A program made the translations under genes and the position numbers. From assembly GCA_964016885.1 (NCBI GenBank), contig OZ024740.1:104904001-104968000 (forward strand): a stretch of 64,000 bases of DNA, read 5' to 3'. This DNA is from Eledone cirrhosa. Taxonomy: Eukaryota. Below, in pieces: positions 28,691-36,772 of this stretch (within the stretch, counting starts at the first letter, position 1; each line of letters opens with the position of its first letter). Under the pieces are notes generated by a model. The model was not told the origin of the DNA and did not search any database. It was given only the letters and a program-made list of their open reading frames with translations.

Positions 28691-28728
28691 CCTTTACCGG
28701 TTTCGCAGTTCTTCTGCTTTTCAAAAGG
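28691..28728 (-). ncRNA. Minimal type I hammerhead ribozyme, U3-A8 core variant
   Basis: Minus strand CCTT-TTGAAAA-GCAG-AAGAA-CTGC-GAAA-CCGG-TA-AAGG: all three stems pair perfectly, stem III palindromic (ACCGGT), GUA cleavage triplet. Confidence 0.85.
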
Positions 28729-29766
28729 TGAGTTGAGATGGAGGGTCTGTGGTTTTTCTCACATCTAGTTGGTCTCTGAATGTTACTTGTTTTATATGGA
28801 AAAAGTGGCTCGAAATTCCAGGTTTTTCGAGAAGTAATTTGATTGGTTTGTCAATAATTATAATAAATTTCGCGCCAGTTCGCGTTACAATAGTTCTTCA
28901 AATAAGAGAGGGGGGGGTTGTCACAGGTTGTTTTTTCATATATGAGTGTTTGAATTTCTTTTTACTTGAAAAAAGGAGGCTCACGAAGGCTTTTTTTTGG
29001 TTGGTTATAAATGAAATTTGGCTGTCACGTGAACAAGTTTTCATTACATTTTTGCGCCCTTATTTGGAAAACTATTCTGTAGTCTTTATAGTGAATGTTA
29101 TGACAATGGAGAGATAGTGGTCAAGAGAAAAGGGATTGGGAGAAATGTTCTGGTTCAGTGAATATGGCCAGCTCGCCGGGGTGTCATAGTTCAGATTTTC
29201 TATTGAGACTGAAGATATGTATGTTTATTTGTGTGCTTGTGTGTGTGTATGTGTGTGTGTGTGTGTGTGTGTGTGTGTGTATGTGTGTATTGGAAGATGA
29301 TTCTATTAGTAGAGATGGGGGAGGGAGTTGTGTGTGTGTGTATATGAGTGTTATGTGTGTGTGTGCGAGTATGTTAAGATGGAGAGAATATATATTTTGT
29401 GTGTGTGTATATATATATATGTGTGTAGGAAAGTGGTTCTATTAGTAGAAATGGGGAGGGAGTTGTAGGTGTGGGGGTTGTTATGTGTGTGTATGGGTGT
29501 TATGTGTGTGGGAGTATGGTTAGCATGTTAAGATGAAGAGAATATATATATATATTGTGTGTGTGTGTATGTGTGTGTGTAGGAAAGTGATTCCTTTAGT
29601 AGGAATATTTTTGAATGAACATATTTTCCTTACTTTTTCGTGTTTGCTGTTGTATTGCCAGTGCAAACGTATGTTAAGGTTTATTTAGTTCGGGTTTTTA
29701 TTTTCTAAAGTAGAAGGTGTTATGTGTGTGTGTGTATGTTATATTGTGGTGTTAACATAATGTATA

Positions 29767-30260
29767 TTAAACCTTATTTAATGTTGGTCTATATTTTTGA
29801 ATAAACATATTTTCCTTATTTATTCGCATTTGTTCTGTTGTATTGTTAGCGCAAAGGTAAAATGGGAAGACTTGGAATTTGGGTGTCTTATTACTTGCGC
29901 AAATGTCTAGATGTGCACTTAGTGGTATCTGTCTCGTGGTTGGATCTCGTGATTGTTGGCGATGAACTGTCATTCTGTTTCTGAGTATGAGTTTAGTTTG
30001 TCCTATATAATCTTCATTGCATCCTTTACATTTAATGGCATAAAGTAGAATTTTTGATGAGCAAGTGAAGTGATTTTTTACAGTAAAATTTTGTCCTGAT
30101 TTAAATGTATACGTGTTGCCTTCAATGAGGTGAGTGCAGGTTCCACAATTAGAGCAACCACATTTTTTGATACTTGGTTGTGGGTTTGTGGTAGGTAATT
30201 TGGCATTGGTGAGTAATGTTTTCAGTGATTTTGGTTGTCTTTTGCTTTTGATTATTTTGT
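29767..30260 (-). pseudogene. PLE C-terminal zinc-finger linker + GIY-YIG endonuclease fragment
   Basis: LLY..CxxC..YIGQT..R...H and terminal E...LN motifs; the ORF track shows only its last 68 aa. Confidence 0.85.
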
Positions 30261-30299
30261 GTGTTTATATATATATATATATATATATATATATTATGA

Positions 30300-33115: not shown

Positions 33116-33411
33116 ATATATATAGAGAGAGAATTAGAATTGGTGCTCTGAAATAGCGATATATATAAGAATGTATATATAGTGCATTTTGCAATACACT
33201 GTGTGCTTAATTAAAAGCATTTCGAAGACCTTACGCTATTGTTTTAAAGTAGTGACAGTCTCACTTACTTTAAATTTTCAGCAAACAGGGGAGATAAAGC
33301 TGACAGAGCTCTGTTTCATACTTTTTGGTACTTATCAAAGCTAACTACTCCACCTGTTTGCTAAAAATTATATATATATATGTATATATATATATATACA
33401 TATATGTATGT

Positions 33412-35830
33412 ATATCATCATCATCATCATCATCATCATTTTACGTCCGCTCGCAAGGGTGGGACGGGTCTTATTCAACACAGCATCTCTCCACTCGTCA
33501 CTGTCCTTCGTCATCTCCACCGTGAGCTTCACCGATCTCCCGCACACTACAAATTATCCCTCTTATACACAGTTTCTTTCTCAACTCATCTATGCTTGGT
33601 CATTCACACACATTGACATTGCACATCCAACGGAGCATGGTTGCTTCATTTCTCTCCAGCTGTTGCATATCCTCTGCAGTTGCTGAGGAAGCAGCTCCCT
33701 AAACTTCTTCCAACCCGTTCTTATTCTAGATACTATGGTCTCCCTCCCATGCTAATCTGATCATCTAGGTACCGGAAGCGATCAACCACTTCTATAGAAC
33801 CCACCTGCATTTGAAAAATGTGTCTATCAATGCGACTTCTACTGTCCTACTAGTATCTGGAATTCCTCACTAAACTCCATTCCTACTTTTACTTTACTGA
33901 CATAGCTTGCCCTGTCCTCACAAGCCATTCCTCTACACCTAGTTTCCTTAGGGACCACCAGATGACAGATCGGGGTACCCTATCAAAGGCATTCTCTAGG
34001 TCAACAAAAGCTAAGTATAGTGGCTTATTCTTCTCTAAGAACCTATTTTGTAGTTGTCTCACTAAGAAGAGGGCATCTGTTGTACTTTTGCCAGGCACAA
34101 AACCAAACTGCATCTCGTCTAATTTGACCCTTTCTCTAATTAGTTGCGCTAATATTCTCTCTGCCACTTTCATAACCTGATCCATCAGTTTTATGCCCCT
34201 ATAATTGCTCTTCTCCAAAGCATCCCCTTTACCTTTGTAGCAATTTATGAGAATAGTGCTGCACCAGTCTTTGGGTATGACACTGCCATATATAGCTTGA
34301 TTGATGATGCGTGCAACCAGTTTGGTGCCTACTTCTGCTGATGCCTTCAGCATCTCAGCAACTATCCCCGACGGTCAAGCGGCCTTACCATTTTTCATTT
34401 CCTTAATTGCCTCTTGGACCCTATATTCGTCAATCTCATTAGCTGGTCCCTGTCAGGTCTACTGGGGTTAATTTCTCTCTCTCCCATTTGTTCTCCACAT
34501 TCATCATTCACTCATAATGACATTTCCAGGCCTTCTTTTTCTGATCATTCGTGACACTAAGTACACCAATATCATTCCAGACACACTTATCTCCAACAAC
34601 ATCCTGATTTACACTGACACACTGCCTTGCAATGTGGAACACCGCACGTCTCTGATCTTCCTGTCACAGAATATTGGCAAACCTCCTGCTCTCAGCCTCC
34701 CTGCGTGCTAAGTACACCTGACATCTAGCTTCTCTCTTAGCAGCTGTGTATTGGTCTCTACTCCCACCCTTTTTCCAAGCGTTCCATGCTAGTCTTTTGT
34801 CTCTAATGGCCTTATCTACTGTGCTGATCCACCACCAGGTCACTCTCTGTCTGGTTGGAGCTCTGCTCCAGCTACAAGTTTCATCAGTAGCCTGAAGCAA
34901 GTTGTCATGTAAGAAATTCCAGTTATTATCTATGCCATACGTCTCTAAATCGTCTTCTTTTCGTCATATACATCTTGAAGGGCTTTCCTAAATTTTGTAT
35001 TTTAGTGAAAGGTATTTTAGCTTCCAGACCTTTCTTCTCCACACCTTCCTGTGTGGCTCATTCCATCTCTTGCTTACTGAGATATCACTAACGACTAACC
35101 TATGCTGTGGGGTACATTCTTCCCAAGGGTATGCCTTGGTATTAGCCACTATCTGCCTGTCCCGCTGCATAACTAGTAAGAAGTCAATCTGACTTATGTG
35201 CTCGCCAGATTTGTAGGTTATTAGGTGATTGGCAGGTTTCTGGAAGTTTGTTTTGCAAATAGTCAGTGTACTTGCATCACAAAATTCAAGAAGTCTCACT
35301 CCTTCATTTCTTGAGCCGTAACCGTGCTCACAATGTACCCCAGTGTAACCATCCTGGAGCTGTCCAACATGACCATTGAAGTCCCCTGCTAGCATAACGA
35401 TGTCCTCTGTCATTGCAGTTGTTTGTAAAAGTTGCTTGTAAAAGCAGTCTTTCTCATCTTTGCCTAGGCCTGCTTGGGGAGCATAGGCAGAGATGATTGT
35501 CAGTAGTTTCCTGCCTACAACTAATCTAAGCTTAATTATTCGATTGCTAACTCGAACTACCTCTATTGTCTTATTGATCCATCTCTCAGCCAGGAAAATG
35601 CCTACTCCCCCTAACCCATCATCTTTACCTAGCCAGAAAAGCTTATAGCTAAGATGTTTGCCTACGACTAGTCTCGCAGAGGCACCTCTCCATCTCACCT
35701 CTTGCACGCAGCACACATCCACATGCCTTCTCTCCAGCATCTCCACTATTTCAGTAGATCTACCTCTGAGAGTGCCAACATTAAGTGTTGCAACTCTGAG
35801 ACGCAAAGTCTTCATATTTTGTTGTTGTTC
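33412..35830 (-). mobile_element. RTE LINE family 2, includes the endonuclease N-terminus; decayed, internally deleted
   Basis: ORF 34988..35815: ATLNVGTL, CCVQEVRW, GVGI, SAYAPQ, GDFNGHVG, SQIDF, PQHRLV; the RT part is the same as in 23268-25097. Confidence 0.92.
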
Positions 35831-36185
35831 CTATTTGTTACTGTGCTGATAATCGTTTTGACATTGATACACTGGTTGGATGCCCTTCCTAACACCAGTG
35901 CTCTTCCTAACACCAGACATATATAGACATATGCAAATATAAATATAATAGGGTTATATTATCGTAAGAGAGGATGGAATGCAGAGATACAAAGAGGTGC
36001 GATACAGAATACTATATGTTTATATATATATGCATATATATATATATATATATATATATATATATATATATATATATATAAACAAGATGTATGGTAGGTC
36101 GTATGTGAATCGCGATGATCACGTCTGACCTACCAAATATGTGACGGTAGCTAGTTAAGCTCTATGCGTATAAGCAGAGCAGAAA

Positions 36186-36772
36186 TATTAGTGAAAAAGA
36201 ACAAAGGAACTATTATGACATTATAACAAGTTTATTGCCGACAGCCGTTTCGTCCGACCATATGGTGGAACTTTTCAAGGCATATAACATGTGATTGTAA
36301 GATCATTATTTACATCAACGTATCACTCAAGGCTAGCAGACAGCAGGTAGACCAGCTAGACACATCCCTGTTCAAGGGGCACAACCCCTAACTTATCGAG
36401 TGGTCAGACTTCAAGGGAGTCAACTCTCCAAGCCCATTAAGTCGACTGTGGTAAAATACAAAAAATCCCTCTTTTAATTTACTTTTAATGCGTAAATTAT
36501 ATATTATTTAATCTTTAACCTTCAATCCCTGACCCCGACAACTAATATAAAAGAGCCCCCTTAGAATATAGACTCCAACTATACAAGCGGAGCTGCTGAT
36601 GTATACCACAATTTCAAACTGCTAGCCTTGAGTGATACGTTGATGTAAATAATGATTTTACAATCACATGTTATATGCCTTGAAAAGTCCCACCATATGG
36701 TCGGACGAAACGGCTGTCGGCAATAAACTTGTTATAATGTCATAATAGTTCCTTTGTTCTTTTTCACTAATA
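36186..36772. repeat. Inverted repeat (~155-bp arms, ~280-bp spacer) with two divergent hammerheads
   Basis: 36186-36340 is the reverse complement of 36619-36772; right end abuts (TA)n and a (TA)n run lies ~100 bp to the left. Confidence 0.92.
36676..36722 (+). ncRNA. Type I hammerhead ribozyme, U3-A8 core variant (mirror copy on - strand at 36236-36282)
   Basis: TGCC-TTGAAAA-GTCC-CACCATATGGTC-GGAC-GAAA-CGGCTG-TC-GGCA; GUC triplet. Confidence 0.85.

Follow-up and report, generated by a model that had tools for sequence, protein, structure and literature searches.

Hammerhead ribozymes with a U3-A8 pair in the catalytic core have already been described in the Cercyon Penelope-like elements of Schistosoma mansoni, where they are minimal in form and number about 1,300 hits (Cervera and De la Pena 2014, PMC4209133). 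The usual C3-G8 pair forms in the active hammerhead fold (PMC3884650), and Perreault et al. (2011, PMC3088659) report U3-A8 from nature and cite it as an active form in vitro. Penelope-like elements widely keep their hammerheads, yet in PAc, the hammerhead of an Anolis Poseidon element, cleavage depended on the 3-8 pair, being abolished in single mutants and partly rescued in a double mutant, and was dispensable for insertion in vitro (PMC11167929). Here we describe hammerheads in a 64,000-nucleotide stretch of the Eledone cirrhosa genome (the window; assembly GCA_964016885.1, contig OZ024740.1, positions 104,904,001 to 104,968,000), a patchwork of repeats in a 3.0-Gb animal genome. They are genuine type I hammerheads, which three Penelope-like families (A, B and C) carry in their terminal repeats, and a fourth family (D) is a 320-nucleotide tandem unit. 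Our reading, to which we give a probability of about three in four, is that U3-A8 has replaced C3-G8 as the family state and that the motifs likely keep a weak, predicted self-cleavage under a long-term but leaky selection.

Hammerhead motifs and the elements that carry them

A first-pass annotation had reported U3-A8 motifs at 28691-28728 (minus strand), 32931-33025, 36676-36722 and 36236-36282, and all were present there with that core. The family A hammerhead (28728-28691, minus strand) is a minimal type I motif with the core UUGAAAA at 28724-28718, a GUA cut site, stems I and II of 4 bp each and a stem III formed by a 6-nucleotide palindrome of the dimer type. It sits in the 3′ terminal repeat of a Neptune-like element. 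The type I hammerhead of family C (36676-36722, plus strand, U3-A8 core at 36680) has a GUC site and an 8-nucleotide wobble palindrome as stem III, and lies in the terminal repeat of a Hydra-like element; its inverted copy (36282-36236, minus strand) has a U3-A8 core at 36278. Family B (32931..33025, plus strand, type I, U3-A8 core at 32936) has a long stem II and a hairpin stem III. In most B copies the site is GUC and stem III has 5 bp. The window copy is decayed: its site is GUU and its stem III holds an A·C mismatch. It gave no hammerhead-shaped fold and fell below detection by the strict scanner described below. An inverted 5′ half of B, claimed at about 31642-31653 on the minus strand, was found at 31653-31627, with the core kept and the sequence stopping in stem II.

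The window was also scanned for the hammerhead shape with positions 3, 7 and 8 unconstrained, which recovered the motifs of families A and C at the places given above. A motif overlooked in the first pass belongs to family D (33280..33362, minus strand, U3-A8 core with U7 at 33338, GUC site); it is a partial copy of the 320-nucleotide unit and has an extended helix I with an internal loop. Hammerheads of other families with the usual C3-G8 core were located at 31475..31548 (minus strand, core at 31544) and 37246..37324 (plus strand, core at 37250), and further C3-G8 motifs at 43531 (minus strand) and 43725 (plus strand); the first pass had overlooked these four as well. The window motifs of A, C and D all have the type I core (N3-UGA-N7-N8-A ... 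GAAA), a Watson-Crick pair between positions 3 and 8, three helices and an open helix I. Family B copies have the same features as U3-A8 hammerheads, the stem III mismatch being that of the window copy. An NUH cut site follows A15.1-U16.1 in each family: GUA in A, GUC in C, D and most of B, and GUU in the window copy of B.

The hammerheads were linked to open reading frames (ORFs) for reverse transcriptase (RT) and GIY-YIG endonuclease. A GIY-YIG frame lies about 1 kb upstream of the family A hammerhead, and the same link was seen in other loci. In the window this frame is the endonuclease end of the A ORF (29767..30264, minus strand; Pfam PF01541, E 1.1e-06), with a CX2CxxC linker and a 5′ truncation at a (TA)n tract. 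At locus L214 a broken RT-endonuclease ORF with the motifs GLKF, DKG and CX2CxxC lies between two A hammerheads. Judged by eye from the translations against the descriptions in PMC8557442, family A appears to fit the Neptune clade (GxKF, DKG, a CX2-5CxxC linker and a C-terminal endonuclease). Family C hammerheads lie on both sides of an ORF at L031, which has the motifs RWR, CxCX5C and CxxC; DKT was not found among the C ORF pieces examined. A subfamily of B, B2, forms 3.5-kb tandems at L234, with an open frame of 786 codons in a hammerhead-ORF-hammerhead layout. This ORF carries every Hydra mark: an RWK-like motif (RWR), DKT, the CxCX5C linker, CxxC in the endonuclease and (TA)n targets. B2 had been suspected to be a C3-G8 sister of family B, and turned out to be U3-A8. 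In the window, the last ~50 codons of the B ORF (32359..32517, minus strand; 85% identity to the open ORF of L234) lie in the inverted part of the insertion. Families B and C are classed as Hydra-like; like the name Neptune, this assignment rests on protein motifs rather than on a tree including reference elements. At L214, L234 and L031 alike, a single ORF with RT and, at its C-terminal end, a GIY-YIG domain lies between hammerhead repeats, in tandem or inverted copies, as in Penelope-like elements.

As in Cercyon, the type I hammerheads lie in terminal repeats, U3-A8 occurs beside a C3-G8 majority in one genome, and palindromic stems III as well as solo and inverted copies are found. Unlike in Cercyon, the exact matches of the four pattern families in the octopus number more than 16,000, on both Neptune-like and Hydra-like elements, and its family B has a full hairpin stem III and one subfamily amplified with a mismatched C3·A8 pair. 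The occurrence of U3-A8 in Penelope-like hammerheads was published in 2014 for the schistosome, and our families add further examples of it; what is new is the C3·A8 subfamily of B, with 305 matches. PAc shares the terminal-repeat hammerhead near the ORF start and, as in family B, two 3′ end positions (a tail). However, PAc is C3-G8 and was assayed in vitro, whereas the U3-A8 ribozymes of the window families are predicted from sequence. The hammerheads of Perreault et al. show the same compensatory U3-A8 pair, but the passages on U3-A8 in that paper do not cover animal retrotransposon families or amplified mismatch states. A literature search of main texts returned no amplified C3·A8 subfamily, U3-A8 retrozyme or hammerhead from an octopus element; the supplements of PMC4209133 and PMC8557442, which list hammerheads by family, may hold such cases.

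Family D is a non-coding unit of 320 nucleotides with a guanine-cytosine (GC) content of 33% and one type I hammerhead per unit. Head-to-tail arrays with a spacing of 311-321 nucleotides were found in 9 of 30 loci (8 distinct places), and they are short, with 2-3 units. Folded as a circle, the unit reached -77.5 kcal/mol, against -51.7 +/- 5.6 for 50 crude shuffles, and the ribozyme fold had a z score of -5.6. No consistent ORF link was found among the loci examined, and an apparent tie to an ORF in L110 was not supported. In structure, family D appears to fit the definition of a non-LTR (long terminal repeat) retrozyme, a non-coding tandem unit of 150-450 nucleotides with a type I hammerhead each. 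It resembles the metazoan non-LTR retrozymes (PMC7229834; Li et al. 2026, 10.64898/2026.07.22.740005) in unit length, low GC content, head-to-tail arrays, the single type I hammerhead and strong self-pairing as a circle. It differs from them in its U3-A8 core, its arrays of 2-3 units and its putative circular RNA; the relevant passages of the two sources contain no U3-A8 retrozyme. The D hammerhead has a 4-bp helix II and a 6-nucleotide loop, and its long helix I contains an internal loop. The proximal part of this helix I is 4 bp, compared with 6 bp in the canonical tertiary-stabilised type, which combines a 4-bp helix II with contact between loop 1 and loop 2.

State of the 3-8 pair within and among families

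Searches of the whole genome with exact patterns that allowed any base at positions 3, 7 and 8 returned 12,338 matches for family A, 3,364 for B, 822 for C and 548 for D. Backwards controls of the eight exact-pattern searches returned 0 matches each. U3-A8 was present in 99 (A), 91 (B), 99 (C) and 94 (D) of the first 100 matches listed per family, and C3-G8 in none of these 400. In family A, U3 was missing from 68 of the 12,338 matches (38 C, 17 G and 13 A, by hand count), and A8 was kept in all 68; these cases are background mutation after insertion. Position 7 varied by subfamily, with all four bases in B; in C, a hand count among the first 100 matches listed gave A in 72 and U in 28. The count of 3-8 combinations in genomic copies established U3-A8 as the family norm, but it also revealed the mismatched subfamily of B (305 of 3,364).

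Genome-wide, C3-G8 is the majority state and U3-A8 a sizeable minority. A strict scan (score of at least 13) of 80 evenly spaced 10-kb genome stretches (L101-L180) found 55 hammerhead matches in 800 kb, of which 45 were C3-G8 (11 in one array), 6 U3-A8 and 4 others. Since three local shuffles gave only 2, 0 and 3 matches and the reversed sequence 2, the matches are not due to chance. Family B escapes this scanner; its 40 3′ halves include four with the whole U3-A8 core. Scanning more loosely in the vicinity of ORFs detected further motifs of both states, including another U3-A8 family, M. Extrapolated to the genome, 55 matches per 800 kb implies on the order of 100,000-200,000 motifs, in more than 12 families.

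The two states were compared in an unrooted tree of Hydra-like ORFs (19 rows, 433 columns), with 7 rows labelled U3-A8, 8 labelled C3-G8 and 4 unlabelled; these labels were assigned with the tree already in view. U3-A8 occurred on B, C and M. The corrected labels required three changes, and a single U3-A8 clade was rejected (approximately unbiased test, p-AU 0.0002). A first one-clade test (p-AU 2e-06) was dropped because the labels of L145 and of a K motif near L141 came from adjacent insertions. L145 was left unlabelled, L141 was labelled by its own 3′ motif, and L103, L110b and L151, lacking a linked hammerhead, were not counted.

The 3-8 pair has probably flipped repeatedly among the Hydra-like families, with about three changes, and B and C may share one U3-A8 origin. 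A competing explanation, somewhat doubtful but a serious one, is that U3-A8 has a single origin, or one in each large clade, and was then passed on by descent or carried between families along with the terminal repeat. The three families would then not count as independent evidence. Three of the C3-G8 labels belong to families with atypical cores, U4A (the L141 family) and U4C (L101 and L110a). When these were set aside and only canonical-core C3-G8 families were compared, the U3-A8 rows (B, C and M) fell on one side of a branch with 100/99 support, as expected from a single origin; besides, the tree is unrooted and repeats can be swapped between families. The rejection at p-AU 0.0002, obtained with the atypical-core families included and the labels revised after the tree was seen, speaks against it, as do the different protein type of family A and the lack of shared sequence among the ribozyme stems. 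The first-pass annotation had described the three families as unrelated. For A this is upheld to the extent that its protein type, judged from sequence motifs, places it in another clade, separate from B and C. However, all three are Penelope-like, with both B and C of the Hydra-like kind, and a common origin of U3-A8 in these two is rejected only if the three atypical-core families count as C3-G8. No hammerheads of other Neptune-like ORFs were found at the loci scanned, which left no C3-G8 relatives for the placement of family A.

A mismatched subfamily and the role of cleavage

Among the 3,364 family B matches, 309 have C3 and 23 lack A8, giving 305 C3·A8, 3 C3-G8 and 5 U3·G8. The share of C3·A8 in B is about 9%, against 0.3% for C3 in family A. 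The C3·A8 copies have diagnostic flanks in common and are dispersed, and some belong to elements with both repeats and ORF remnants. Their mean pairwise identity was 91.5% (15 rows), compared with 98.9% (8 rows) in the U3-A8 subfamily B2; B2 is young and C3·A8 its older sister subfamily. A tree of B was built with the core left out and only from rows with at least 500 nucleotides of shared upstream sequence (39 rows, 1,019 columns). In this tree C3·A8 radiates from a node that lies between U3-A8 lineages, and its sub-branches are starred; it may be a side branch or part of the main line of B (support 52/66). Being dispersed and radiating, these copies indicate that a master with the mismatched pair transposed many times without G8 following. 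This suggests that cutting is not always needed for spread.

Other altered cores have been amplified as well. The L141 family (L141:1444, minus strand), which is very abundant, Hydra-like and the sister of family B in the ORF tree, has a 3′ hammerhead-like motif with U4A, a G15.2-C16.2 pair and U17. The U4A version was common to 31 of 39 matches in the loci examined, as found with a pattern built on the same core. U4C with C3-G8 kept occurs in multiple copies of two Hydra-like families (L101 3′ region, L227:5520-5660 and L110:5737).

The spread of C3·A8 would be compatible with strict selection for catalysis if every spreading master was active, either because a C·A pair is tolerated or because the register shifts so that C3 pairs with G7 (CUGA-GA plus an extra A before stem II). 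G7 is indeed present in 91 of the first 100 C3 matches listed (of 309), in one subfamily context, these ribozymes commonly have an additional base between positions 9 and 10.1 (PMC4209133), and nearly all families hold a Watson-Crick 3-8 pair. We nevertheless regard this explanation as unlikely: the G7 association is one evolutionary event, single 3 or 8 mutants were dead in the Anolis hammerhead, although with substitutions other than C3·A8 (PMC11167929), and the register shift is our own proposal, without a source in the literature. We tentatively suggest, at slightly short of even odds, that the genome holds a natural record of the core pair flipping, in the form of a Hydra-like C3·A8 subfamily that spread in several rounds between U3-A8 relatives, the U4A and U4C families and a U3-A8 retrozyme-like unit. 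Either a functional hammerhead would then be dispensable for the transposition of Penelope-like elements in vivo, or C3·A8 with G7 would be an unrecognised active core.

The ends of the copies bear on the same question. Copy 5′ ends lay within 3 nucleotides of the cut in 1 of 55 cases for B (random stretches), 0 of 85 for A (all loci) and 0 of 62 for D. The B copies started 21-50 nucleotides upstream of the cut site in 34 of 55 cases, and their 3′ ends form two groups relative to the cut, one near +20 and one at +100 or farther. As copies do not start at the cut, the insertion template would span the site, in line with the Anolis element. Insertion would use RNA across the cut site, either uncut or re-joined, primed 20-110 nucleotides downstream of the cut. 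In the active fold U3 would pair with A8. Families A and C would cut as dimers through their palindromic stems III (model in PMC4209133), B as a monomer through its 5-bp stem III, and D as a monomer or dimer to give units or circles of about 320 nucleotides. Cutting would help in the long run, probably by trimming or circularising long tandem transcripts. Dimeric cleavage was reportedly treated by Lünse and colleagues in 2017. As cutting would not be required in every round, a master could drift through the C3·A8 mismatch and still spread; mismatch intermediates could spread for this reason, and passage through a single mismatch would be a route for the pair to flip between C-G and U-A.

A fold kept for a non-catalytic job, such as protein binding, priming or dimer formation, with a drifting core and U3-A8 as a frozen accident, would also account for copies that do not begin at the cut, for the amplified core variants C3·A8, U4A and U4C, for the low in vitro activity published for such motifs (PMC4209133), and for the excess of B 3′ halves without the 5′ core (65,203 against 3,364 whole motifs, as exact matches). 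It seems quite improbable to us, since the unpaired core bases are fixed across families with unlike stems, with only position 7 free, and since positions 3 and 8 are C-G or U-A in 51 of the 55 scanner matches, a pattern that is the known catalytic requirement.

Stem covariation, counted for the group of D and its relative E, agrees with leaky selection for cleavage. One pair in D stem II is exchanged, U-A for C-G, in 42 of 100 rows, and one row is mixed (hand count, first 100 matches listed of 548). When 18 rows of D and E were aligned, both partners had changed in 6 of the 28 pairs, spread over helices I, II and III, and all 18 rows had U3-A8. The covariation score was 0.163, compared with at most 0.065 in slid controls, and was above all 500 shuffles. 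That U3-A8 is not decay, as the first-pass annotation had argued, agrees with its being the family state in A, B and C, with position 7 being free while 3 and 8 are mostly paired, and with the covarying stems of D and E.

Several observations weigh against retained cleavage. Both the mismatched subfamily and the abundant family with U4A are compatible with a complete absence of selection for catalysis. The pair-count measures of D and E were no better than shuffles (73/500 and 496/500), and the covarying cells stem from few subfamily events in related rows. Monomer folds of A, B and C had z scores of -0.65 to -1.5, not better than shuffles, and the window copy of B had +1.2; weak monomer folds are expected for A and C, because these would need dimers. 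The boundary test used matches of at least 28 nucleotides, and shorter copies starting at the cut would escape it. Selection for catalysis, as originally proposed, therefore stands only in part: the 3-8 pair is mostly kept, but C3·A8 was amplified, the U4A family is abundant, copies do not start at the cut, and insertion without cleavage has been published in vitro (PMC11167929). Selection on the core is real in the long run but leaky. The young U3-A8 and older C3·A8 sister subfamilies, with a near-identical ribozyme that differs at a key base, form a natural pair, which bears on whether cleavage matters for spread and on how a compensatory change crosses the mismatch state.

Detection, arrays and other features of the window

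At its gathering score, Rfam reported no hammerhead in the window. Permitting E values up to 10 gave two weak matches there, C to Hammerhead_1 (20.1 bits, E 1.1, cut-off 34) and D (17.4 bits, cut-off 52). The C3-G8 motifs of the window were likewise undetected, which extends the blind spot beyond the 3-8 pair. The prediction that CUGANGA searches would miss these motifs was correct for the U3-A8 cores, and Rfam missed the C3-G8 motifs as well. In this genome, searches restricted to CUGANGA pass over more than 16,000 motifs, among them those of the retrozyme-like family.

Short fold-back stubs of the family B repeat with only the 3′ half of the ribozyme were found in the window at 26228-26357 and 44119-44350; the 65,203 exact matches genome-wide are to a 16-17-nucleotide piece of this 3′ half. 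Truncation and inversion of the B repeat concentrate in stem and loop II. Tandem hammerhead arrays with C3-G8 had units of 310 nucleotides (11 copies, L150:281-3381, minus strand), 528 nucleotides (3 copies, L156:6638-7694, plus strand) and 467 nucleotides (2 copies, L141:5602,6069, plus strand). A 299-nucleotide array at L206:307-905 (minus strand) derives from the B2 terminal repeat (U3-A8), possibly a retrozyme in the making.

Among the other features of the window, positions 1-2335 hold a 30-nucleotide minisatellite (78 copies) and 47337-54394 a 7-kb array of a TGG-rich 15-nucleotide unit (473 copies) with extreme GC skew. Fragments of a long interspersed element (LINE) family with AP endonuclease, RT and PHD finger (Pfam) lie at 27567-28535, 33440-35830 and 38373-39662, all on the minus strand. 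Two tRNA-like matches at 30744-30814 (plus strand, 30.5 bits) and 43111-43168 (minus strand, 28.5 bits) are probably heads of short interspersed elements. Long inverted repeats and hairpins occur beside insertions at 37632-37890 / 39715-39973 and at 43569-43687.

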